Both the position numbers and the translations under genes were made by a program. A DNA stretch of 64,000 nt, from the sequence record MN850579.1; one strand, given 5' to 3'. The notes below the pieces were generated by a model. That model had not been told where the DNA came from. It saw only the letters and a list, made by a program, of their open reading frames with translations, and searched no databases. This DNA is from Escherichia phage mogra. The stretch's first letter is position 1; each line of letters starts with the position of its first letter. This document shows positions 2,665-13,263 of the stretch, one piece after another.

Positions 2665-2694
2665 GTTTACATAAGGATGTTGGTGTGATACTAT
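2665..2694 (+). promoter_or_regulatory. T4-type early promoter (GTTTAC -35, TACTAT -10) with flanking inverted repeat AGGATG/CATCCT
   Basis: GTTTAC at 2665; about 18 nt spacer to -10. Confidence 0.5.
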
Positions 2695-2730
2695 CATCCT
2701 ATCAAATCACAAACCAAACGGAAAAAACAA

Positions 2731-3042
2731 ATGAAAACTTATCAAGAGTTTATCGCTGAAGCTACTAAAGCCGATAAAAATTTTATTATTAACACCACCG
2801 GTCCGTTAGATGATGAATACGCTAATGCTATTATTAAGTCAATTTCTAATCAAGGCGTTGAAGTAACAAATTTCGAATATAAGAAAAATGATACTTATAT
2901 GATAATTAGTATCAAAAAAGGTTCAAAAGCCAAAATTAAATCTGCGTTTGGTGTTATGCGAGTTGACCAAATCGATAACCACGATTTTTCACAAACAGGG
3001 GTCAAACGCCAAAATACCATTTCTTCTAAAGGCATAAAATAA
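2731..3042 (+). CDS. internal protein with capsid-targeting sequence (IPI locus)
   Basis: N-terminus MKTYQEFIAEA matches the T4 internal-protein capsid targeting sequence; position after 57B. Confidence 0.7.
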   Translation: MKTYQEFIAEATKADKNFIINTTGPLDDEYANAIIKSISNQGVEVTNFEYKKNDTYMIISIKKGSKAKIKSAFGVMRVDQIDNHDFSQTGVKRQNTISSKGIK

Positions 3043-3085
3043 TTTACAACAAGATAGGACTATGTTATAGTAGTCCTATCAAAAC
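3042..3085 (+). promoter_or_regulatory. early promoter / stem-loop cassette (TAGGACTA..TAGTCCTA family)
   Basis: ATTTAC -35; inverted repeat flanking TGTTATAG. Confidence 0.5.
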
Positions 3086-3103
3086 AACCAAACGGAACCT
3101 AAA

Positions 3104-3367
3104 ATGAAAACTTTCAACGAATTCATCTCAGAATCATCTGGTGTGAAAATTAACAAAGCGGTCAATCAGGTTATTGCTGATATTCTTAATTTGTATAACA
3201 TTGACTTAACTCCGCATATCACGCTTGGTAACAAACGAAACTTTTTCATATTTGACACATCTGAACTTGATGAAAATCGGTTCAATAACATTCAACGTTT
3301 TGCGAATGATAAAGGTCTTCGACACGAGCCTGGTGGCTATAAAAAATACGCAATATATTTGAAATAA
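3104..3367 (+). CDS. internal-protein-like, variant CTS (MKTFNEFISE)
   Basis: CTS-like N-terminus; own promoter cassette upstream. Confidence 0.55.
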   Translation: MKTFNEFISESSGVKINKAVNQVIADILNLYNIDLTPHITLGNKRNFFIFDTSELDENRFNNIQRFANDKGLRHEPGGYKKYAIYLK

Positions 3368-3416
3368 AGGTATACAAGCCTATAGGGATATGTTATAGTA
3401 GTCCTATCAAAACAAA

Positions 3417-3623
3417 ATGAGTAAATGGAGAAATAAAATGAAACGCGCTGAACTGATTCGTAATGTTGCTGTAGTAATTGCTTCAATGGCTTTTAGTTTT
3501 TCGATGTTTGTAGGATTCATTTGTGGACTACTGACAACAACAGAAAATTCTATCTCATTGGTAGTAGCATTTCTAATCGGCTTAATCGCTATCGTTATGG
3601 ATAAAATTGCAAAAGGTGAGTAA
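3417..3623 (+). CDS. small membrane protein
   Basis: 68 aa, two hydrophobic segments. Confidence 0.5.
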   Translation: MSKWRNKMKRAELIRNVAVVIASMAFSFSMFVGFICGLLTTTENSISLVVAFLIGLIAIVMDKIAKGE

Positions 3624-3624
3624 A

Positions 3625-3987
3625 ATGAAATATCATGTATATGCTGATTTTGAAGCAAATCCTTCTAAAGACCCTGATTGTCGTTTGATACGCAGACCAT
3701 TTGATTCAGCAGCCCAAGCATGGGCTTGGATTAAAACTTGTACTCCTTCTTACACTTTCTTTGAAGTGGTAGATGATAACGGTGTTCTGCATCCAGAACC
3801 TACAGAAACTATTAATTTCCTTCTGTTTGCTGGTTATGACTGTTATCCTCTTGGTGGTATTGACGACCTTGTTGCTATAGGAAAAACTGTTGAAGCTCTT
3901 CGCGAAATTTATAAAAACGCGGAAGAAAATTTTGACTGGTATCATATCGTTGATGCTCATACCTTTGAAATGGTGGAACATTCATGA
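3625..3987 (+). CDS. hypothetical protein
   Basis: ATG 3625 overlapping upstream stop; 120 aa. Confidence 0.55.
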   Translation: MKYHVYADFEANPSKDPDCRLIRRPFDSAAQAWAWIKTCTPSYTFFEVVDDNGVLHPEPTETINFLLFAGYDCYPLGGIDDLVAIGKTVEALREIYKNAEENFDWYHIVDAHTFEMVEHS

Positions 3988-4274
3988 TTCTTTATGCTAA
4001 AGTATCGTCCATTGAGAACGGATATGAAAGCGACCAACGAGCAGCTAAAGCGTTAGTTGATGACTATGGTATTCTGACTATCTTTGAGGTTGAAAAGGTT
4101 TATATCGACCGTTCATCTTCACAAGTTAAATTACTCTGTGAAGACGTTAAATTTAACACAGTTAACTTTGATTTCTTTATTGAAACAGAAAAAGGCCCTC
4201 TTGAATATGATATTTTCAAGAACCCTTTGAAATTACGTTGCATTGAATATAACTACATTAATATGGTACGGTAA
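3984..4274 (+). CDS. hypothetical protein
   Basis: ATGA overlap with upstream ORF; 96 aa. Confidence 0.55.
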   Translation: MILYAKVSSIENGYESDQRAAKALVDDYGILTIFEVEKVYIDRSSSQVKLLCEDVKFNTVNFDFFIETEKGPLEYDIFKNPLKLRCIEYNYINMVR

Positions 4275-4370
4275 AACGTAATTTGCTTTAAGAATTATGT
4301 GTTATTATTAATCTACCCTCTATTACCAAAGGTGCTCCCTCAAGTGCCTTTCATAATAGAAAGTTATTTA

Positions 4371-4445
4371 GGCCCTGTAGCTCAATGGGAGAGCTGTCAG
4401 CTCATAACTGATAGGTAGCTGGATCGAAACCAGCCAGGGCCACCA
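4371..4445 (+). tRNA. tRNA, anticodon CAU (Met or lysidine-modified Ile), with encoded CCA
   Basis: Cloverleaf by hand: acceptor GGCCCTG/CAGGGCC, D-stem GCTC/GAGC, anticodon loop CTCATAA, T-stem GCTGG/CCAGC, 3-prime ACCA. Confidence 0.8.
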
Positions 4446-4545
4446 ATTCGCGGTGAGTACGCTCTTAGGTAGGTAAGTTGTTCGAATAAGGGTTAAAAGT
4501 AGAACCTACAAACGAGTAACCCTGAAACACCCAAAGCCGCATCAT

Positions 4546-5340: not shown

Positions 5341-5805
5341 ATGAAATCATACGCTGAATTTTTGACTGAACAATCTAGTTCAGATGTAAAAGCCGCTGCG
5401 ATTGCAGCAATTCAAGCAGGTAAATATTCTTACAAAGACGCCTCTGATGAAGAACGTTTCCGTTTTATTAGAGATTTTAAAGCCGAAGGTTTTACTAATG
5501 CTAATACTGTTAGCCGAGTTTTTAAAAGCCTAGCTGCATCAGGTGAATTGTTCCAGAAAGCTACAGGTAAAGCACCTGCACCAAAAGCGGACCCTAAAGC
5601 CGCTCAAGAAAAAAATATCGCCAAAGGAATTATTTCTAAGTATGAAGCAATTCTTAAAGAGCTTTTAGTAATCAAAACAGAAGGCCAGAAACTGGCACGA
5701 GCACATAGCTTCAAAGATAATCCTCACGCTCATAGCCTTGAGTATGTTGAAGATATCCAAAAACTTATTAAAGACCGTATCTGGTCTGCTAAACAAATTA
5801 AATAA
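5341..5805 (+). CDS. internal-protein-like, variant CTS (MKSYAEFLTE)
   Basis: CTS-like N-terminus; Lys/Ala-rich; flanked by terminators. Confidence 0.5.
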   Translation: MKSYAEFLTEQSSSDVKAAAIAAIQAGKYSYKDASDEERFRFIRDFKAEGFTNANTVSRVFKSLAASGELFQKATGKAPAPKADPKAAQEKNIAKGIISKYEAILKELLVIKTEGQKLARAHSFKDNPHAHSLEYVEDIQKLIKDRIWSAKQIK

Positions 5806-5811
5806 TAGAAT

Positions 5812-5838
5812 GCCCCTTCCTTACGGTTGGGGCTTTTT
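5812..5838 (+). terminator. rho-independent terminator
   Basis: GCCCCTTCCTTACGGTTGGGGC then T5. Confidence 0.65.
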
Positions 5839-5871
5839 GGTATCTAGGGCATAAAAATATTTCATAAAGAT

Positions 5872-5900
5872 GTTTACTTCTTCCCTAGATGTGTTACTAT
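5872..5900 (+). promoter_or_regulatory. T4-type early promoter
   Basis: GTTTAC 5872; TACTAT 5895. Confidence 0.5.
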
Positions 5901-5928
5901 AGACCTATCAAAACATGGGGAGAATATT

Positions 5929-6432
5929 ATGAGTCTTTACACTGAACTGAATAAAAAATCTGAAGAATCTGCTGAAACTATTTTTAAAAACGTGCAAAAG
6001 CGTATTTTAGAAAAGATGTATAACGCTGCAGCTAAAGGTGAAAAATCTTGCCGGTTTCCGATTAGGTGTTCTTCAGATTTATGCGCAAATACTATTGAAT
6101 GGCTGGAAAGTGAAGGTCTTACGGTAGAGAAAAACCCGGCGACTTCTATTGATAGCGAATCATATATTAGTATTTCTTGGGATAAATCAAGGGTAGAAGA
6201 GAAAGATGGTGATTGGGTTGTAGATGTTAAAACTTCTGATGGTGGACGTTCTGTTGAAGTTTCAGCTGTAGTTAAAGGTACCCACGAACAAAGGACTTGG
6301 GGTTGGGGTGGTGAAGAAAAAGAAATTGTTCTTAGTGTGATTGCCAGGTCAACTAGTAATAAAATTGCACAAAGCATCATTGACGCTGCAATTGCTGAAG
6401 CAGAAAAAATTTGCAAAATTAAAAATAAATGA
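5929..6432 (+). CDS. hypothetical protein
   Basis: 167 aa; promoter cassette upstream. Confidence 0.55.
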   Translation: MSLYTELNKKSEESAETIFKNVQKRILEKMYNAAAKGEKSCRFPIRCSSDLCANTIEWLESEGLTVEKNPATSIDSESYISISWDKSRVEEKDGDWVVDVKTSDGGRSVEVSAVVKGTHEQRTWGWGGEEKEIVLSVIARSTSNKIAQSIIDAAIAEAEKICKIKNK

Positions 6433-6491
6433 TGTACAAGCACCAAGGATGGTGATACTATAGACTTATCAACTACAGAGGAGTAAACAAA

Positions 6492-6656
6492 ATGACTACT
6501 TTAATTATTTGGTTCGATGAAAATGAAGAAACATACTGTGTGAATATTGGTGAAAGTCCAATGCCTGAATTTGAATCCTCAGATAAAAACTCTGTTGTAT
6601 CTTGGGCTGAAGGTTATAAAGCAGCTAAAGGTGACGTTGAAATAATTTACATCTAA
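6492..6656 (+). CDS. small hypothetical protein (54 aa)
   Basis: ATG after SD gaggag; below ORF-track length cutoff. Confidence 0.4.
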   Translation: MTTLIIWFDENEETYCVNIGESPMPEFESSDKNSVVSWAEGYKAAKGDVEIIYI

Positions 6657-6702
6657 GTAAGTTTATGTTATAGTAGTCCTATCAAATCAAGAGGAAAACA
6701 AA

Positions 6703-7000: not shown

Positions 7001-7594
7001 ATGAACACACTGAAGAAACTTGTTGAATTCATCCGCACTAAACTGGGTACTGCTATGGCTAAAAATCTGACTGTCGAAGAACAGTATAACGCAGCTGCAG
7101 ATAAGTTGATTACCCAAATCAAAGAACTAAAAACGGCTTCTGTTAAATCTATTAATGAAGAAAAACGTATTCGCGAACTTGTTAATGAAAAGAACAAGCA
7201 AGCCGCTTCTAAGGAACTTGAAATTCGTAAGCTCCTGGCTGAAGGACAAGATGTTACTATGCATGCTAAGCTTGGTCTTCTGTATCGTCGAACTGCCGAA
7301 CAACTTAATACAAAAGCTGACGGGTATGCCGCTATGCGAATTGAAATTGCTCGTAAGGTGGTTGAACTTGACGATGCTCGTCAGAACCTGGCAATCAAAC
7401 TCGAATACATTCGTGAAACTCGAGCAGCCAATGCCCTTGGTATCTCTACGGCCGATGATGTAATTGAAATCGCTGCACTGACTAAGGTTGATATCGAAGA
7501 CACTCTGACTCGTGTTGAAACGTTCAATGGCACTCCAGCCGGCGTCGAAACCACTTCTGCTGATGTACAAGAATATATTAACTCTTTGAAATAA
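7001..7594 (+). CDS. coiled-coil protein; weak PspA/IM30-like character
   Basis: Long heptad-rich helical sequence; ATG 7001 downstream of promoter cassette. Confidence 0.5.
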
Positions 7595-7602
7595 AATAAT
7601 AC

Positions 7603-7624
7603 GGAGGACTCCGGTCCTCCTTTT
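7603..7624 (+). terminator. rho-independent terminator
   Basis: GGAGGAC-TCCG-GTCCTCC then TTTT. Confidence 0.75.
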
Positions 7625-7643
7625 GGATAATAAAGGAGTTAAC

Positions 7644-8246
7644 ATGCGAAACCAAAATAATGATATTGACTCAATGTTCGAAGAGTTCCGAGATAAGGTA
7701 AATCCACCTACGTCTTTAGTTGATTCATTACGATATGTTGCAACTGGACGTAAATGGTACTGGTCGTCTTCTTATGAGACCACCGAGAAAACGGCTAGCC
7801 ATAGCAGAAAATCTTTATTAGCCCCAGGTATTATGATTCATGATATCGGAGCTATTGCTAAACTAGTTGCAGACCATGATATTAGATTCACTGATTTCGT
7901 TGCTCCTACGTGGTCTGTTTGTTGTTTAAACACTGAATGGGAATATATCAGCGAACGCTCTGAAGATTATTATGGCTTTAGAGATAAGCTTCTGAGGTCT
8001 AATATGTTTTATATCGATACAGAAGTTCTAGTCGATAATAAAAAATATTACTTTACGTTAATCATCGATTCTGAAACTATGTATGAAGGCAAGCCTTTGC
8101 TTAAGAGAGTTGATGCTTTAAGTGCTATTGATGCGCTTTATGAAACTATGGTTGTTAGTCCTAATTTCACTAATAATTTAATCCTTGAGCAATTTATTAT
8201 GGAATGTAGAGAATATGTCAAAGCCAACCCTATACATGCCAAGTAA
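7644..8246 (+). CDS. hypothetical protein
   Basis: ATG after SD aaaggag; C-terminus carries FIMECR motif. Confidence 0.5.
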   Translation: MRNQNNDIDSMFEEFRDKVNPPTSLVDSLRYVATGRKWYWSSSYETTEKTASHSRKSLLAPGIMIHDIGAIAKLVADHDIRFTDFVAPTWSVCCLNTEWEYISERSEDYYGFRDKLLRSNMFYIDTEVLVDNKKYYFTLIIDSETMYEGKPLLKRVDALSAIDALYETMVVSPNFTNNLILEQFIMECREYVKANPIHAK

Positions 8247-8610
8247 GCCCTGGGCGTATGAATACAAGCGTAAATTAATCCCAAATGAAGTATTATTTGG
8301 CCCTATTTTAGCTTTAGCATTTTTAATCTTTATGATTATAGGAGCTGTTTTAGATTCTAGTGAAGTTATATCGTCTGATGCAGCATTTTCATTAATGTTC
8401 GTCGCACCACTTATTGTACCGTTTTTATTAATGCCTATTAATTGGGTAGGATATTGGCACCAAGGCCGTCATCACAGAGCCCGATTAAGAGAATGGAAAG
8501 TTCAGTGCGCAAAAGCCCAAGCTCAGTATGATGAAGCTGTTAAAAAGTATGAATATGAAGAAGCTATGGAATTCGTTAAGGAAATAAGATGCAAAAGCCT
8601 CAACTCTTAA
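8215..8610 (+). CDS. small membrane protein
   Basis: Hydrophobic helices; overlaps upstream gene end. Confidence 0.45.
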   Translation: MSKPTLYMPSKPWAYEYKRKLIPNEVLFGPILALAFLIFMIIGAVLDSSEVISSDAAFSLMFVAPLIVPFLLMPINWVGYWHQGRHHRARLREWKVQCAKAQAQYDEAVKKYEYEEAMEFVKEIRCKSLNS

Positions 8611-8948
8611 CCGTATGGCCTTCTCTTGGTGAGAACATTCTAATTTTTATTATGAGTATTGGCATGGGATTTGCCTTTGGATTAGTTGGATTTCTTATTG
8701 ACGGCGTTGTGTTAGGATTTATAGGGAACACTGGTGGATTCACAGACCAATGGCAGGACTTACGGTATACCCAAGCCTTTGCATCCATCGCATCATTTTG
8801 TACTGTAGTCTATTTTTACTACGATTTTATAAACCATAACAAGAAAAATAAAAAGATTTACGCTTCTCAAATGATTAGTTATAATGAACTTCTAGCTAAA
8901 CGTGAAAATGAAACAATCGAAAACTTTATTAAGGAATGTAGAAAATGA
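8589..8948 (+). CDS. small membrane protein, C-terminal NFIKECRK
   Basis: SD aagga; TM segments; shared C-terminal motif. Confidence 0.5.
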   Translation: MQKPQLLTVWPSLGENILIFIMSIGMGFAFGLVGFLIDGVVLGFIGNTGGFTDQWQDLRYTQAFASIASFCTVVYFYYDFINHNKKNKKIYASQMISYNELLAKRENETIENFIKECRK

Positions 8949-9250
8949 GTAAGATTATTGAAATTAAAGTACCAGAGTTTAATGATGCCAAATCCGCTTC
9001 AGATGCAATTTATAAACTTCTGAATCAAGCTGAACGTATCGAAGAAGAAGCAACAAAGATCGCAGACCAATATGCCGTGTCATTTTCTGTAGGTGATTAT
9101 GGTAGCGGTCGTACTTATTATCCTAAGGGTGAAATCGTATCCCAGTGGATGAAAGATGAAATTGAAAATAATGGTGGCGATGTTAAGCGTGAAGGTAATG
9201 GTTACGTTATTACTGAAGGTGCTTGGGTTTCGTCTTCTGCGTTGTGCTAA
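8945..9250 (+). CDS. hypothetical protein, tandem paralog 1 (C-terminal GAWVSSSALC)
   Basis: ATGA overlap; shared C-terminal motif with the next two ORFs. Confidence 0.55.
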   Translation: MSKIIEIKVPEFNDAKSASDAIYKLLNQAERIEEEATKIADQYAVSFSVGDYGSGRTYYPKGEIVSQWMKDEIENNGGDVKREGNGYVITEGAWVSSSALC

Positions 9251-9259
9251 GGAATCATT

Positions 9260-9532
9260 ATGTCTAAAGAACAAACCGAACTGGCTGAAGCTGTAGCAAA
9301 AATCTATGCAGCTATTGAGGCTGCCAAAGAAATTGCTGATAAACAAAACACAACATTCAACTTGTACCCAGCTTATGGTATGGGTGGAACCTATCATTCA
9401 CCCAGACATCTTAAAGCCGATCTTGAACGTTGTACAAAAAACGGCTATGCTGAATGGGCTGACGTTTACCAATACGACTACAACCTGAGCCTCGAAACCG
9501 GTGGTTGGGTTGCATCTTCTCACACTTGCTAA
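9260..9532 (+). CDS. hypothetical protein, tandem paralog 2 (C-terminal GGWVASSHTC)
   Basis: SD aagga; shared C-terminal motif. Confidence 0.55.
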   Translation: MSKEQTELAEAVAKIYAAIEAAKEIADKQNTTFNLYPAYGMGGTYHSPRHLKADLERCTKNGYAEWADVYQYDYNLSLETGGWVASSHTC

Positions 9533-9541
9533 GGAAACAAT

Positions 9542-9739
9542 ATGTCTCGTGAATTAGATTGTGCTGTACGTACGGCAGTAGCTGCTCTGGAAAACCTGTT
9601 CCAAATTGCAACAGAAGAACGCGAAGAAGTTACATTATGGATTGAAGATAACGCAGGTCTGAATCTCCAGGACGCGATCTCATTATCCCACAATAGTATC
9701 ACTGTTCAAGGCTGGGTATCATCTAGTTATTCTTGCTAA
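9542..9739 (+). CDS. hypothetical protein, tandem paralog 3 (C-terminal QGWVSSSYSC)
   Basis: SD aagga; shared C-terminal motif. Confidence 0.55.
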   Translation: MSRELDCAVRTAVAALENLFQIATEEREEVTLWIEDNAGLNLQDAISLSHNSITVQGWVSSSYSC

Positions 9740-9743
9740 AACA

Positions 9744-9788
9744 GTTTACAACAAGATAGGGCTATGTTATAGTAGTCCTATCAAAAAC
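9744..9788 (+). promoter_or_regulatory. early promoter / stem-loop cassette (TAGGGCTA..TAGTCCTA)
   Basis: GTTTAC 9744. Confidence 0.5.
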
Positions 9789-9802
9789 AAATGGAGTCCA
9801 CA

Positions 9803-10042
9803 ATGATTTATTACGAAAGTATCGGAACCAAAGTGGTTGGTAAAACCATTACTCGTGAAAAGTTTGCAAAGATATTCGATATGCGTTATAAAAAATCTGA
9901 ACACAAAGGCATCCGATTCGAAGATGCGCACTGTACAATTTGCCCTTATAATGAAGACATAAACGGTACAATCGTTCCATTGGTAGAGGCTTCACACGAT
10001 GACCTCTGGGACGAATATAATATCGCATGTCGTGAAATTTAA
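9803..10042 (+). CDS. hypothetical protein
   Basis: ATG 9803 after SD tggag; promoter cassette upstream. Confidence 0.5.
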   Translation: MIYYESIGTKVVGKTITREKFAKIFDMRYKKSEHKGIRFEDAHCTICPYNEDINGTIVPLVEASHDDLWDEYNIACREI

Positions 10043-10070
10043 GTTAATGAATTAATCCGAGGAAAATATT

Positions 10071-11027
10071 ATGATGTTAGTTATTGGTTCTCGTGCACTT
10101 CACTATCACGGTCTTATTGATTCTAGCGCTATCAAAAATAGCGATTGGGACTTTATTGCGGACCAAGGTTCTTGGAATGCATTCAAAAATCAAATGATGG
10201 GTGTATATGTTCACCAAGATAACCCTGATGTCCAAGTTTTCAAATGCTTCCATAATGGACGCGAAACTCATTTTGAAGCATATATTGTTCCGGCAATCAC
10301 TAATGTCCGTGAATTAGTCGGTGAACTCACTCCTGAAGATTTCACGTCTTCTTATGACCTTTTAAAATACGCCAAGAAAAATTTGACTAAAGACCGTTTG
10401 AACGGGTTTTACTGGGCAACTCCTGAGATATGTCTTGCAATTAAGATGTCTCATCGTTTCAAGAAAAATAATCCATTCTTTTTAAAGACTATGAACCATA
10501 TTCAGTATCTTCGTGGTAAAGGTGTTACACTGAACGATGAACTTACTGAAATTATGCTGAAACGCCAGAAAGAAACCTTGAACTATGCTCACCCGGTTCT
10601 TGACACTTCTAAAAGTGCGTTCTTTAAAGATGACATCTATACATATGACCATGATACTATTCATGAAGCCATTGCACTAACAGACCGTCCGGCTTATACA
10701 TTTTATATGAAAGACGGTTCTGAAGTCATGACCTCACGCGAGAAGTTCGAATCGTTACCAGAAATGGTCAAATTGGCCGGTGTATATGAAGAATCATGTG
10801 TACTAGCATTAGAACGTTCTCAGATTCCTAATGACTTTAAAATTAACCCTGAAGCCAGTTTCATGATGGCATTAGAAAAAGTCTGCACAAGCATCACCTC
10901 CGGTTGGTTCCGTGAATACGCCTGGGAAAACTACAGCAAAGTAGTAAGTATGTACCAAAGCTTAGGACATAACGATTACGTCAAACGTTTCAAACAAAAT
11001 TTCCATATGGTAAAACCTTTCAAATAA
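10071..11027 (+). CDS. hypothetical protein; possible nucleotidyltransferase-fold N-terminus (GS...DWDF)
   Basis: SD gaggaaaa; motif resemblance only. Confidence 0.5.
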   Translation: MMLVIGSRALHYHGLIDSSAIKNSDWDFIADQGSWNAFKNQMMGVYVHQDNPDVQVFKCFHNGRETHFEAYIVPAITNVRELVGELTPEDFTSSYDLLKYAKKNLTKDRLNGFYWATPEICLAIKMSHRFKKNNPFFLKTMNHIQYLRGKGVTLNDELTEIMLKRQKETLNYAHPVLDTSKSAFFKDDIYTYDHDTIHEAIALTDRPAYTFYMKDGSEVMTSREKFESLPEMVKLAGVYEESCVLALERSQIPNDFKINPEASFMMALEKVCTSITSGWFREYAWENYSKVVSMYQSLGHNDYVKRFKQNFHMVKPFK

Positions 11028-11039
11028 TTTCGCAAAACT

Positions 11040-11084
11040 GTTTACACAATTATAGGACTATGTTATAGTAGTCCTACCAAAACA
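11040..11084 (+). promoter_or_regulatory. early promoter / stem-loop cassette (TAGGACTA..TAGTCCTA)
   Basis: GTTTAC 11040. Confidence 0.5.
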
Positions 11085-11097
11085 TGAGGAGAATATT

Positions 11098-11403
11098 ATG
11101 AAATTAGGCGAAACCAACCGAATTGGTCTTTTAACAATATTTGCATCACTTTTTTACGCAACTCTTTCTGTTGCAGTATTACAAAAGGCTTACAGTATGG
11201 ATGGTGTGCCTGGTTGTATATTCTTATCACCGTTTTTATTATTCGTCGGAGCTTTGTTATTATATGCCACGACTAGTTTCGACCATAATGTCTGGGTCAA
11301 TTATAAACGTAAATTGACCGAAGAAGAACACGCAGAAGCTCGTAAAAAAGCTATTGAATCTACCAATCTAGAAAATTTCATTAAAGAATGTCGAGGAAAA
11401 TAA
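11098..11403 (+). CDS. small membrane protein, C-terminal NFIKECRGK
   Basis: Two TM helices; shared C-terminal motif. Confidence 0.55.
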   Translation: MKLGETNRIGLLTIFASLFYATLSVAVLQKAYSMDGVPGCIFLSPFLLFVGALLLYATTSFDHNVWVNYKRKLTEEEHAEARKKAIESTNLENFIKECRGK

Positions 11404-11404
11404 T

Positions 11405-12091
11405 ATGAATAGTTCTAAAGTGTTTAATAGTCAAGCTCGTGCAATAGGTGGTTTTGCTCATGCGATTAAAAACGACCAGATTAAAAACGAGCCTATGTTC
11501 TTTAACTGCGATTTGAATTTTGCTTTTGATAATGGCGGCCCAATTACTCGTAGCTTTATCCAAAATCTCCCTGACGATTGGAAAGACTCGGATGTAGTAT
11601 TTGATTCACGAGTCCACATGCTGATGCCTGGTTGGTACCCTGCTATTCCTGGATATCACCATGACGATGTTCCACGCCCTGATATTCCAGTTGGTCAACA
11701 TTTTATTACTGCAGGACAACCTGATTATGACAATCCTCGCTATTTGTCTGAACATATTCTTGGTCTTGTTAACGCTGATGTGTGTCCTACTCATTTTGCA
11801 ACAGGAACTGCAGAGTTCAGTCAGATTCCTGATGGCGAACTTATCTATCGCCAGTGGCACAAAGAAGTCCTCGAAAAAATCGAAAAAGGCGAACTAGAGA
11901 AATGGGAAGCTCCAGACCGTACTCTTCTTCAGTTTGATTGGCAAACATGGCACACTGGTTCTCGTGCAATTAGTAATGGATGGCGTTGGTTCGGACGTGT
12001 ATCTCGTAATACAGACCGAGTTAAAAAGATTACCAATGAAATTCGTGTCAATGCCCAAGTTTATCTGGAATTCCCTATGGAAGGTTGGTAA
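11405..12091 (+). CDS. hypothetical protein (HHDD motif)
   Basis: 228 aa; function not assignable by eye. Confidence 0.5.
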   Translation: MNSSKVFNSQARAIGGFAHAIKNDQIKNEPMFFNCDLNFAFDNGGPITRSFIQNLPDDWKDSDVVFDSRVHMLMPGWYPAIPGYHHDDVPRPDIPVGQHFITAGQPDYDNPRYLSEHILGLVNADVCPTHFATGTAEFSQIPDGELIYRQWHKEVLEKIEKGELEKWEAPDRTLLQFDWQTWHTGSRAISNGWRWFGRVSRNTDRVKKITNEIRVNAQVYLEFPMEGW

Positions 12092-12582
12092 TGATTAACA
12101 AAACATATTGGTCTAATATAGACGATGGCAACGAAGGTATTTCGTATTATTCGGTAGATTGGACAGGATGTCCATCCTACTTAGTGAAACATATTTGCCA
12201 AGAATTTAAAATCTACCAGCCAGCAGGTATTATTGTGAACAGATACATTAATGGATATCAACCTATCGATGAAGTAATACGAACAACTCAAGCTGAGCTT
12301 GAAAAGTTTTTCAATAAGTGCCAATGGATAACAGGATGGATTATATTTGTACCGTCTATATGGTTTTTTAGTACTAAAGTAAGTGCCTTTGCTGTACTAG
12401 ATATTATCGCTATCTTATTAGCATCTACTATCGTAAGTATTATTGGTGGTATTATTGGTGGAGGTATTGTAGGCATCATTATTAATCTTATTAAAAGTAG
12501 TTTACAAGAACATAAAGACAAGATAAAAGCCAAGAATAATGAAGTTGAACGTTTTATTACCGAATGCAGGAATTTGAGATGA
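12085..12582 (+). CDS. membrane protein with glycine-zipper TM segment, C-terminal RFITECR
   Basis: GGIIGGGIVGII segment; shared C-terminal motif. Confidence 0.5.
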   Translation: MVMINKTYWSNIDDGNEGISYYSVDWTGCPSYLVKHICQEFKIYQPAGIIVNRYINGYQPIDEVIRTTQAELEKFFNKCQWITGWIIFVPSIWFFSTKVSAFAVLDIIAILLASTIVSIIGGIIGGGIVGIIINLIKSSLQEHKDKIKAKNNEVERFITECRNLR

Positions 12583-12815
12583 GTATAGCAATTTACATTA
12601 AATCAGAATCATGTGATAGTTATCTGTACACATACGATAAAGATGTGTCAGAAGAAAAAATCAAAGACGATCTTAATATGGACCTTGATATGTTCTGTCC
12701 TATTGCAGATTACAAACTTGCGGTCTCTAATAGTGAAAGTCCATCTAAAGAAACGCGCATCGAAGAATTTATGTCCGAATTAATGGCCAAATCATGGGAC
12801 CGAGATGATGAGTAA
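12579..12815 (+). CDS. hypothetical protein
   Basis: ATGA overlap with upstream ORF. Confidence 0.45.
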   Translation: MSIAIYIKSESCDSYLYTYDKDVSEEKIKDDLNMDLDMFCPIADYKLAVSNSESPSKETRIEEFMSELMAKSWDRDDE

Positions 12816-13263
12816 GAAAAATAAAGTGAAAGAACTATCAGCCGGTATTATTTTCCTTACCGAAGATAAAGAATTATTCATGGGGCGTGTAACTGGTTCT
12901 TGTCCTAAAGGTTCTTTAGCTCATAGGTGGGATATTCCTAAAGGCCGTGTCGAACCTGGCGAATCTTCTATTGAAGCCGCTATTCGTGAATGCGAAGAAG
13001 AAACTGGGTTTACACAATATGACCCTGCCTTCCTGAAAGACCTAGGTGAACATCGTTACTCAGACAATAAGAATATTCATCTGTTCCTATATGCCATCCC
13101 TGTAGAGCACGAGCAATTCAGAAACAGTGTTTGTAATTCCTATCATACATTCCCAGACGGACGACAGATTCCTGAATTTGATGCATTCGCTTTAATTAAA
13201 CCTTCTCAATGGGAATATGTGATGGGCAAATCATTATATAAGGTGCTCACTACCCTCCTATAA
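12805..13263 (+). CDS. nudE: Nudix hydrolase NudE
   Basis: Nudix box GRVEPGESSIEAAIRECEEETG; immediately upstream of e as in T4 e.1. Confidence 0.8.
   Translation: MMSKKNKVKELSAGIIFLTEDKELFMGRVTGSCPKGSLAHRWDIPKGRVEPGESSIEAAIRECEEETGFTQYDPAFLKDLGEHRYSDNKNIHLFLYAIPVEHEQFRNSVCNSYHTFPDGRQIPEFDAFALIKPSQWEYVMGKSLYKVLTTLL

Follow-up and report, generated by a model that had tools for sequence, protein, structure and literature searches.

In this work we describe a short peptide motif, F-[I/V]-x-x-C-[R/K], at the C-termini of diverse early proteins of T4-like phages, and we conclude from codon usage across related genomes that it is the peptide, not the DNA, that is conserved. This makes a common docking or assembly tag, the codons of which serve only secondarily as the ribosome-binding site of the next gene, the most likely reading of the motif (probability about 0.6).

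A shared C-terminal peptide in the early region from e.6 to nudE

The window, by which we mean the whole 64-kb stretch of DNA analysed, belongs to an RB69-like Mosigvirus, and the five open reading frames considered here are e.5, e.4, e.3, RB69ORF133c and e.2 (Table 1). The C-terminal peptides that a sequence-only reading had pointed out in e.5, e.3, ORF133c and e.2 are present at those places, and the looser version that it saw in e.4 is FVKEIRC, for which e.4 tails of other phages have F[IV]KE[ISV]R[CN]. Its description of the products as mostly membrane proteins fits e.2, e.3, e.4 and ORF133c and fails for e.5, always the first gene after e.6, where no transmembrane (TM) window was found and the AF2 model is a low-confidence alpha/beta structure (pLDDT 59, pTM 0.62) with the motif in a predicted C-terminal helix (residues 178-194). 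In the soluble carriers, the helix may simply belong to the fold. The e.3 product is 37% identical to T4 e.3, which ends in EFVIDCRKIK, while the e.2 tail ends in RFITECRNLR and, in an AF2 model from the single sequence, forms one continuous helix with TM2 (residues 99-162; tail pLDDT 84-95). Profile searches for anti-defence, defence and annotated enzyme families gave nothing above noise in Pfam (a copy without PF26876, PF26896 and PF26873), NCBIfam or PADLOC, and the "sulfurtransferase" label given to e.4 in some GenBank records (OP870146) is unsupported by any profile match above noise. A true tandem triplication (repeat family D3) adjoins these genes at 8945-9739.

Table 1. Carrier genes, motif copies and neighbouring elements in the window
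Feature	Position	Strand	Description	Basis
e.6	7001-7594	+	Highly conserved helical protein just upstream of e.5; non-carrier; anchor for locus harvest	
e.5 homologue	7644-8246	+	200 aa, soluble; C-terminal ...LEQFIMECREYVKANPIHAK-stop	RB69 annotation, phrog_2607
Motif FIMECR in e.5	8193-8210	+	Followed by EYVKANPIHAK	Sequence
e.4 homologue	8215-8610	+	Two-TM hairpin and 39-aa charged tail; ...MEFVKEIRCKSLNS-stop	RB69 annotation, phrog_2604
Variant motif FVKEIRC in e.4	8572-8592	+		Sequence
e.3 homologue	8589-8948	+	Membrane protein, charged tail; ...IENFIKECRK-stop	RB69 annotation
Motif FIKECR in e.3	8925-8942	+		Sequence
RB69ORF133c homologue	11098-11403	+	Two-TM hairpin and 32-aa charged helix; ...LENFIKECRGK-stop	RB69 annotation
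Motif FIKECR in ORF133c	11377-11394	+		Sequence
e.2 homologue	12091-12582	+	N-terminal soluble domain, TM hairpin, short charged tail; ...VERFITECRNLR-stop	RB69 annotation
Motif FITECR in e.2	12553-12570	+		Sequence
PeSL-like early-promoter cassette	9738-9786	+	Copies at 6639-6687 and 11034-11082; 78-86% identity	Repeat search, family D1

In a six-frame translation of the 64 kb, the patterns F[IV].EC[RK] and FI.ECR each match four times, in every case at the C-termini of e.5, e.3, ORF133c and e.2. The looser F[IV]xxC[RK] also matches four times in the window and exactly three times in the whole T4 genome (e.5, e.3 and the C-terminal fragment of e.2), always in this cluster and at most 15 residues from a stop. 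Simulated windows contain a mean of 1.08 matches to this looser pattern in total and 0.39 near a stop, and none of 200 reached four near-stop matches; taken alone, the window is therefore only moderately significant.

We consider the comparative sequence evidence for the reality of the motif to be decisive. Among approximately 70 loci anchored on e.6 or NudE from five Tevenvirinae lineages, the first 41 gave 124 sense-strand matches, all 124 within 15 residues of a stop and none internal, and the 32 NudE-anchored loci likewise showed C-terminal matches and none internal; the sampled sequences are phylogenetically related, so that these counts overstate independence. The motif is also kept in all 22 remote e.5 representatives recovered by an exhaustive search of 1.84 billion proteins, and positions outside the search pattern are conserved as well, with a hydrophobic residue at -3 in 74% and glutamate at -2 in 47%. 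Chance likeness among AT-rich coupled genes, which the roughly four-fold excess of a loose four-residue pattern in a single window would by itself leave some room for, can be regarded as already refuted by these data and by the restriction of the motif to this cluster in T4. No published description of the motif was found in the literature.

Carriers number two to six per genome, in the plastic early region from e.6 to nudE of Tequatrovirus, Mosigvirus, Dhakavirus, a Karamvirus-like group and more distant T4-like phages. Adjacency to e.6 is not required, as one locus (L064) that lacks both e.6 and e.5 still has carriers; together with another (L030) in which all carriers are soluble, this argues against an obligate soluble-plus-membrane pair.

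Carrier families and their possible common origin

The consensus, hydrophobic(-3)-E(-2)-x-F-[I/V]-x-x-C-[R/K]-[K/R/G], lies 0-15 residues before the stop. The two middle residues vary freely across families, and about 22% of families (family-weighted) have I, V or S in place of the cysteine, so that a chemical role for cysteine is not universal. At least 13 carrier families were distinguished, both soluble and membrane-anchored, most of which have no detectable homology once the tail is removed. The soluble carriers comprise the e.5 superfamily together with several 95-160-aa families. The membrane carriers (e.2, e.3, e.4, ORF133c and others) are small inner-membrane hairpins in which a highly charged helix of 15-40 aa extends from the second TM segment, with the motif at its end. 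Within the e.5 superfamily, the subfamilies of which are 13-19% identical to the e.5 of the window, the only invariant alignment columns are N96, F184, C188 and R189, the last three of which belong to the motif. A fixed C-terminal position in proteins without detectable homology elsewhere places the peptide among C-terminal linear motifs. In T4, e.2-e.6 are early transcripts for which the proteins have been detected (PMC9697503, supplementary files 4 and 6).

A possible, if not the favoured, explanation for this distribution is ordinary divergent paralogy, in which one ancestral gene, at least for the membrane carriers, was duplicated in tandem and the tail is its slowest-evolving remnant. Such an origin would be in keeping with the tandem gene cluster and the neighbouring triplication, with the common architecture of hairpin and charged tail, and with a weak match between ORF133c and the e.2 family (phrog_2203, E=1.9e-4), in the C-terminal half of the latter. 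Further weak links come from hhalign, which relates e.5 to the protein in the e.5 position of Dhakavirus (60%) and the soluble families of 99, 109 and 131 aa to one another (33-46%). Against it, soluble alpha/beta proteins and TM hairpins have nothing in common except the tail, and most pairs of tail-trimmed family alignments score below 8% probability in hhalign, a comparison made with shallow family alignments and with TM hairpins that are hard to compare, which leaves room for a common origin of the membrane carriers. Paralogy in any case concerns the origin of the tails and is compatible with a docking function.

Conservation of the peptide rather than the DNA

The sequence-only reading had proposed, as one of two possibilities, that the similarity reflects a repeated junction cassette rather than protein function. 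In this explanation the conserved entity is a DNA or RNA element, either a coupled Shine-Dalgarno (SD) and start or a recombination cassette that has been copied from one junction to another, with the peptide as a side effect. The arrangement of the genes offers several points in its favour: overlap with the next gene is seen at 99 of 112 junctions, and an SD lies inside the motif at 30 of 71 close junctions; in T4, the e.3/e.2 junction (TGCAGGAAAATTAAATGA) is almost the same as the e.2/nudE junction (TGCAGGAAATTAAAATGA); Mosigviruses in which e.3 is deleted retain its last ~90 nt, including motif and SD; and identical codons show a marginal excess within genomes (P=0.016). The comparative codon data nevertheless appear largely to refute it. 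The F, I/V, C and R positions use all of their synonymous codons (TTT/TTC; ATT/ATC/ATA; TGT/TGC; CGT/AGA/AGG/CGA/CGC/CGG), with both codon boxes in use for arginine. The peptide NFIKECR, identical in e.3 and ORF133c, is encoded with five synonymous and no non-synonymous differences, and same-codon identity at synonymous sites is 0.48 for paralogues within a genome versus 0.45 between genera. Furthermore, it is at the SD-forming K-E (AAGGAA) that the motif varies from family to family, and the RBS block found after ORF133c occurs also at 10058 and 11085 with no preceding motif (repeat family D5).

Alignment of the 3' ends points in the same direction. Across the five genes of the window, the best 18-nt windows within the last 15 codons agree at 10-15 of 18 positions (mostly 10-13) against a background of 10.6 +/- 1.0, a comparison that omits the first two motif codons of e.5. 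The similarity anticipated at the DNA level is thus clear for one pair, e.5 and e.3, in which 20 of 22 nucleotides are identical, and modest for the others; homologous recombination would need more than 18 nt at ~45% codon identity.

The sequence-only reading had suggested a comparison of orthologues that have different downstream genes, and these do retain the peptide. In T4 e.3 is followed by e.2 and in RB69 by ORF139c, while the gene after e.2 is nudE in Tequatrovirus and the Karamvirus-like group and ORF130c in RB69 and Dhakavirus. The peptide is maintained between orthologues only 13-47% identical overall, and also where the next start lies 68-87 nt away behind a promoter; the SD often comes after the motif, and between 4 and 87 nt separate the Arg codon from the next ATG. 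On this evidence we judge a junction element to be a very improbable basis for the conservation.

Secondary use of the motif codons as a Shine-Dalgarno sequence

The claim that the motif DNA holds the SD of the next gene stands for e.3, e.4 and e.2, weakly for e.5, and in ORF133c for no more than the last motif codon. In e.4, AAGGAA (8578-8583) is the SD for e.3, the ATG of which (8589-8591) lies inside the e.4 codons AGA-TGC; in e.3, AAGGAA (8931-8936) serves the next gene, with an ATGA overlap at 8945-8948; and in e.2, AGGAAT (12568-12573) serves ORF130c, which starts at an ATG at 12579, again in an ATGA overlap. The SD after ORF133c (GAGGAAAA, 11393-11400) lies mainly downstream of the motif and shares only its Arg codon.

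Since the genes are translationally coupled, the motif overlaps the initiation region of the next gene. Motif nucleotides form an SD-like purine tract 5-13 nt ahead of that gene's start in e.3, e.4 and e.2 of the window and at 30 of 71 close junctions; elsewhere the SD lies downstream or the next start is 17-87 nt away. AGA and AGG make up 49% of motif Arg codons, compared with 27% at the remaining gene 3' ends and 15% within gene bodies. Selection has probably tuned codon choice, favouring AGA/AGG for arginine and, where tolerated, K-E as AAGGAA, so that these codons double as an SD; the trailing basic residues have probably been tuned likewise, with R-K as AGGAAA and R-G-K as CGAGGAAAA. The dual-use element raised by the sequence-only reading is thus upheld in a weaker, secondary sense, as a by-product and not the cause of conservation.

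A candidate docking tag on probably cytoplasmic tails

By the positive-inside rule all tails are probably cytoplasmic. The motif is helical in both AF2 models (e.5 and e.2), and positions -3, 0, +1 and +4 would line up as a single hydrophobic stripe with E(-2) and R(+5) on its flanks, an arrangement that looks like a short helix-packing surface. The cytoplasmic location and this surface are the reasons for reading the motif as a docking tag, which would gather diverse early proteins onto one partner, of host or phage origin, or onto each other, at the inner membrane.

The same stripe could have an intramolecular or membrane-surface role, the helix packing on its own protein body or lying as an amphipathic anchor on the cytoplasmic membrane face with no common partner. 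In e.5 the motif co-varies in invariance with the body residues S91 and N96, and the helix is predicted as part of the model, as would be expected of such packing. We think this rather unlikely: the small hairpin carriers lack a soluble body that the helix could pack against, a four-residue hydrophobic patch is too small for an autonomous membrane anchor, and the motif points away from the membrane because it ends a 15-40-aa tail of which 37-50% is charged.

A stability tag, such as a C-terminal degron or a protease or chaperone signal that times the removal of early proteins, is less probable still. To our knowledge the helical, charged motif is unlike the known tail signals recognized by ClpX, Lon or FtsH, and it may lie anywhere from 0 to 15 aa before the C-terminus. 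Such a signal would suit the C-terminal location in unrelated early proteins and the differing protein-level timing of the T4 carriers, in which e.4 and e.5 are early, e.2 is middle and e.3 is late (PMC9697503, supplementary files 4 and 6).

Regarding the partner of the proposed docking tag, it is conceivable as a long shot that the motif is an "address label" plugging a changing set of early effectors, soluble and membrane-tethered, into one inner-membrane host hub, with mimicry of an amphipathic SecE helix as the lead. Among PDB entries, the tail profile found its best genuine matches in archaeal SecE (KIEQLKEFIEECRR; E=0.06-0.1, marginal and from a post hoc comparison), and E. coli SecE carries F71-A-R-E-A-R76-T-E-V-R where its Pfam domain (PF00584) starts. 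Mimicry of this kind would dock carriers on SecY and, if true, T-even phages could, early in infection, modulate the Sec translocon or turn it to their own use.

Implications

Approximately half of T4 genes are still without an assigned function, e.2-e.5 among them. One tag across e.2-e.5 and their replacements in related phages would suggest that these genes belong together functionally, and reduces a dozen orphan families to one testable question, namely what binds a Phi-E-x-F-I-x-x-C-R helix. The region is also a natural example for annotation, in which a peptide constraint and the SD of the next gene fall on the same nucleotides and comparative data tell which constraint is primary. In addition, it yields an annotation correction, as T4 e.2 is split, and the 3' fragment, which carries the motif, lacks an annotation.

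Comparison with known systems

Coupling through an embedded SD resembles what we observe in that motif codons of e.3, e.4 and e.2 form the SD and AGA/AGG are enriched at 3' ends generally. It accounts for codon choice and trailing residues, but leaves the invariant F, I/V, C and R unexplained, and these persist without coupling.

What does recur in this region as a true DNA cassette at gene junctions is the PeSL-like promoter block (Table 1). PeSL (promoter-early stem-loop) cassettes, described from the hyperplastic regions of T4-type phages (PMC2839356, PMC4122927), resemble the motif in recurring at gene junctions of the same kind of plastic early region. However, they are ~50-nt promoter/terminator elements between genes, which mediate recombination and are conserved in their nucleotides, whereas the FIxxCR motif is coding and conserved solely as a peptide, without DNA homogenisation. 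Nucleotide-level conservation between motif copies, synonymous positions included, was tested for and not found, and the motif, inside coding sequence, contains no promoter hexamers (GTTTAC ... TATAAT-like).

SecE/Sec61-gamma shares with the membrane carriers a cytoplasmic helix adjoining a TM segment in a small membrane protein. The tails are nevertheless not members of that family: the E..KKV.WP hallmark segment is absent, the motif helix follows its TM segment whereas the amphipathic helix of SecE precedes it, and the Pfam SecE model (PF00584) matched none of nine tails at E<=10 while scoring E. coli SecE at 70 bits. Pfam entries PF26876 (e.5), PF26896 (e.2) and PF26873 (short fragments resembling e.4 tails), known here from their labels alone, cover single carrier families as separate entries, none of them joined by the common tail.

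The closest parallels to a docking tag are the C-terminal tail of SSB and the C-terminal clamp-binding peptides of T4 gp43, gp33 and gp55, which bind gp45. There too, a short conserved peptide at or near the C-terminus is found on unrelated proteins of one biological system, and its place in the protein counts above the surrounding sequence. The motif described here differs from these peptides in its sequence (Phi-E-x-F-I-x-x-C-R), in being helical with a near-invariant Cys-Arg, and in that many of its carriers are membrane-tethered.

Distribution of the C-terminal motif

The window belongs to an RB69-like Mosigvirus, with positions 7600-12900 sharing 97-98% identity with RB69 and related phages, and the five ORFs of interest are named e.5, e.4, e.3, RB69ORF133c (ORF133c) and e.2 in the curated annotation of RB69, where the block lies between e.6 on one side and nudE/e (lysozyme) on the other. 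A reading of the sequence alone had proposed that these ORFs share a C-terminal peptide, and their tails confirm it. Below, carriers are genes whose products bear a C-terminal F[IV]xxC[RK]-type motif, numbered from F = 0 to C = +4 and R = +5. Six-frame translation of the 64 kb yields four matches to F[IV].EC[RK], only at these C-termini. Simulated windows contain a mean of 1.08 matches to the looser F[IV]..C[RK], 0.39 of these close to a stop, and four near-stop matches occurred in 0 of 200 simulations; taken by itself, the window renders the motif only moderately significant.

What is decisive for the reality of the motif is comparison across phages. Approximately 70 loci were collected from IMG/VR and GenBank by anchoring on the conserved neighbour e.6 and then on NudE (e.3 alone, as a query against viral contigs, yielded only 2 loci), covering Tequatrovirus, Mosigvirus, Dhakavirus, a Karamvirus-like group, a group with 54-56%-identical e.6, and more distant T4-likes. 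The refuting alternative, that the similarity is no better than chance among AT-rich coupled genes, is contradicted on two counts: across the first 41 loci (ORFs of at least 50 aa) all 124 sense-strand matches fall no more than 15 residues from the stop, with none internal, and the whole T4 genome (168,903 bp, six frames) contains the pattern exactly three times, always in e-cluster tails. Matches in the NudE-anchored loci are likewise C-terminal without internal ones, and two unrelated Nudix-bearing phages in that set are without carriers. T4-like phages possess 1-6 carriers among the 3-16 ORFs from e.6 to nudE. T4 e.2 itself is split, such that the annotated gene (102 aa) ends after the first transmembrane (TM) segment while the remainder, including the motif, occupies an unannotated frame 3' of the annotated stop that terminates on the nudE start; other Tequatroviruses encode an intact e.2 of 162 aa. 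The record of Shigella phage vB_SsoM_113 shows a single fused e.5-e.4 ORF of 324 aa in its annotation, which may be a genuine fusion or result from a frameshift in sequencing.

Coordinates and C-terminal sequences (up to the stop codon) of the features discussed
Feature	Source	Positions	C-terminus or remark
e.6	window	7001-7594	
e.5	window	7644-8246	...LEQFIMECREYVKANPIHAK
e.4	window	8215-8610	...MEFVKEIRCKSLNS
e.3	window	8589-8948	...IENFIKECRK
ORF133c	window	11098-11403	...LENFIKECRGK
e.2	window	12091-12582	...VERFITECRNLR
e.5	T4		...KFVKECREYVKAITIPSK
e.4	T4		...KFVKESRCKSQS
e.3	T4		...EFVIDCRKIK
e.2, unannotated 3' frame	T4 NC_000866 (L002)	67472-67633	minus strand; ...NNFITECRKLK
e.2, intact	vB_SsoM_113 (L006)	4001-4489	
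e.5-e.4 fused ORF	vB_SsoM_113 (L006)	2686-3660	
e.4	L041	916-1311	
Deleted e.3	L004	6990-7095	
Deleted e.3	phage LF82-4 (L042)	about 1491-1590	
tRNA cluster	L064, 165.5-kb T4-like contig	5600-6700	region where it directly abuts the first carrier gene
Paralogue triplet	window	8945-9250, 9260-9532, 9542-9739	common ending W-V-[S/A]-S-S-x-x-C
Triplet junction repeat	window	9218-9265, 9500-9547	77%
ORF134c	window	10071-11027	
ORF132c	window	11405-12091	
PeSL-like blocks	window	6639-6687, 9738-9786, 11034-11082	

Clustering resolves the carriers into at least 13 families. Soluble carriers comprise the e.5 superfamily, invariably the first gene after e.6, together with families of ~95-160 aa, while small membrane carriers comprise e.2, e.3, e.4, ORF133c and at least five further families. 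After trimming of the tails, hhalign returned only a handful of weak links, 60% for e.5 versus the Dhakavirus e.5-position protein and 33-46% among three small soluble families, with most family pairs below 8%. The family-weighted logo reads hydrophobic at -3 (74%), E at -2 (47%), x, F, I/V/L, x-x, C (78%, with I, V or S in the remainder), R (85%)/K and [K/G/R]. Within an alignment of e.5 subfamilies sharing 13-19% identity with the e.5 of the window, the sole invariant columns are N96, F184, C188 and R189. Profile searching, carried out exhaustively over 1.84 billion representative proteins, gave 27 clusters, and all 22 remote members fetched terminate in [E/D]F[I/V]xxC[R/K]...; word-indexed searches (e.2, an e.5 profile and a TM2-plus-tail profile) returned close relatives or fragments only.

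Peptide versus DNA conservation

The sequence-only reading had suggested that the conservation may reflect a repeated junction cassette in place of protein function, or else an element serving as both. Four lines of evidence favour conservation acting on the peptide and not the DNA. First, among 112 unique contexts every synonymous codon is used: F by TTT (80) and TTC (32), I by ATT (66), ATC (19) and ATA (9), C by TGT (60) and TGC (52), and R by CGT (32), AGA (27), AGG (22), CGA (11), CGC (8) and CGG (1). Second, NFIKECR is common to e.3 and ORF133c of the window, whose codons for it show five synonymous and no non-synonymous differences. Third, the two middle residues vary freely (KE, TE, EE, KG, KQ, KY, MQ, SR, NS, DD, RM, NL and others), including the K-E pair, whose codons AAGGAA are the Shine-Dalgarno (SD) sequence originally noticed. 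Fourth, the peptide is retained in orthologues when the downstream gene differs, e.3 being followed by e.2 in T4 and by ORF139c in RB69, and e.2 preceding nudE in Tequatrovirus and the Karamvirus-like phage but ORF130c in RB69 and Dhakavirus. Synonymous-site codon identity between carriers of different families is 0.480 within genomes versus 0.448 between genera (permutation P=0.016), and since the within-genome value approximates that expected from codon bias alone, cassette-like homogenisation is not indicated. Together these observations speak against the junction cassette.

The dual-use proposal fared better. Carriers overlap the next gene in 99 of 112 junctions, while a few are followed by an intergenic promoter without an overlapping gene; the Arg codon and the following ATG are 4 to 87 nt apart in the junctions examined, many of which have their SD 3' of the motif. 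An SD tetramer falls within the motif in 30 of 71 close junctions, and basic residues after C-R often encode the SD (R-K as AGGAAA, R-G-K as CGAGGAAAA, R-N as AGGAAT). AGA and AGG account for 15% of Arg codons in the bodies of genes; the share is 27% over the ten terminal codons of 1,273 non-carrier genes (P=6e-11) and 49% at the motif Arg (P=5e-5 versus other termini, the samples not being independent). The rise at gene ends, seen across loci L001-L040, is a genome-wide footprint of downstream SDs embedded in coding ends; use of these codons did not differ significantly between near-start and far-start junctions (P=0.55, with a crude start-codon caller). The ribosome-binding-site (RBS) block CGAGGAAAATATTATGA follows ORF133c and also occurs at 10058 and 11085 without a preceding motif. 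In phiE142-like, LF82-4 and PTE-Eco05 Mosigviruses, e.3 has an internal deletion and is out of frame; ~90 nt at its 3' end survive, with both the motif and the next gene's SD. The sharing of nucleotides by peptide and SD is genuine, yet secondary to the peptide.

Topology and putative function

The description of the carriers as mostly membrane proteins holds for four of the five, hydropathy giving two TM windows each in e.4, ORF133c and e.2 and one strong plus one weak in e.3, but none in e.5. Between the end of TM2 and the motif, e.4, ORF133c and e.2 have 15-39 residues, of which 37-50% are charged; K/R clusters are found on the tail side, suggesting by the positive-inside rule that the tails are cytoplasmic. 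In the AF2 model of e.2, TM2 and tail form a single continuous helix up to the C-terminus (tail pLDDT 84-95), and that of e.5, of low confidence (pLDDT 59, pTM 0.62), shows an alpha/beta fold whose last helix (residues 178-194) contains the motif; Foldseek found nothing similar to it in the PDB (best E=0.03, TM-score 0.2), a search made uninformative by the low-confidence model. One helical face holds -3, 0, +1 and +4, with E(-2) and R(+5) on its flanks. The layout runs from a membrane anchor or globular body through a charged helical stalk to a small conserved hydrophobic knob. This layout, and the occurrence of the motif on unrelated bodies, both suggest a putative docking or assembly tag.

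As an obligate partner, e.6 is weakened by contig L064, in which a tRNA cluster immediately precedes 4-5 carriers, e.6 and e.5 both being absent within 10 kb. The carriers of locus L030 are apparently all soluble, making obligate pairing of a soluble with a membrane carrier unlikely. The e.6 protein is predicted to be helical, without a family match, and is 54-99% identical across lineages in the e.6-anchored loci, far above its neighbours; in loci L075 and L078 the only e.6-like ORF is far more divergent. A PspA-like identity for e.6, an impression by eye, was dropped, Pfam giving no support. At its N-terminus, e.6 has an invariant KK[LI]VEFIRxKLG, similar to the opening half of the tail motif (Phi-x-E-F-I).

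When a profile of 28 tails was compared with all PDB sequences, archaeal SecE gave the sole non-artefactual matches (KIEQLKEFIEECRR, E=0.06-0.1); RecA matches were an artefact of concatenated chains, each stretch contributing only 5 bits. E. coli SecE carries F71-AREAR-TEVR right at the start of its Pfam domain. SecE hallmarks were not found in the phage tails and the Pfam SecE model scores none of them, such that homology is rejected by profile and SecE remains a resemblance, and a low-probability lead.

Annotation, neighbouring genes and PeSL-like cassettes

For the five proteins and e.6, searches of PHROGs, PADLOC and the local Pfam and NCBIfam libraries returned only function-less PHROGs and sub-threshold noise; precomputed labels place recent Pfam accessions (PF26876, PF26896, PF26873) on individual families. 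Several GenBank records (e.g. OP870146) label e.4, a two-TM membrane protein, as a sulfurtransferase, which Pfam, NCBIfam and PHROG do not support for the copies in the window and in locus L041. In T4, e.2-e.6 are transcribed early, and mass spectrometry has detected their proteins (PMC9697503, supplementary files 4 and 6). A preprint on early-protein toxicity in AV110 (10.64898/2026.09.14.751387) concerns Gp94, beside motA, and not the e-cluster genes; attempted mapping of its Gp208 and Gp214 onto e-cluster genes gave no assignment. Our literature search found no description of a FIxxCR-type tail motif, and neither literature nor family labels linked the carrier families through a common tail. 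A C-terminal peptide motif common to several proteins is a known kind of feature; here it unites a dozen families of orphan early genes in the best-studied phage under one testable question, and offers a clean case of RBS code and peptide code on the same nucleotides.

The region also contains a tandem triplet of small paralogues with repeated junction DNA, the first copy being a single 101-aa ORF in the window and ORF139c plus ORF138c in the RB69 record; homologues occur in Karamvirus-like and Dhakavirus loci (L005, L007), some with additional copies. ORF132c (228 aa) has HHDDVPRPD and other strongly conserved blocks, is nearly invariant among Mosigvirus, Dhakavirus and Karamvirus-like phages, and has no Pfam match. 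ORF134c matches DUF7277 plus DUF7275, and both genes are absent from T4.

The repeated DNA cassettes proper of the region are three early-promoter blocks of ~49 nt, 78-86% identical to one another, with GTTTAC...TATAGT and the palindrome TAGGACTA/TAGTCCTA, two of which flank the ORF135c-ORF134c module. These resemble the PeSL cassettes described for the hyperplastic regions of T4-type phages (PMC2839356, PMC4122927).
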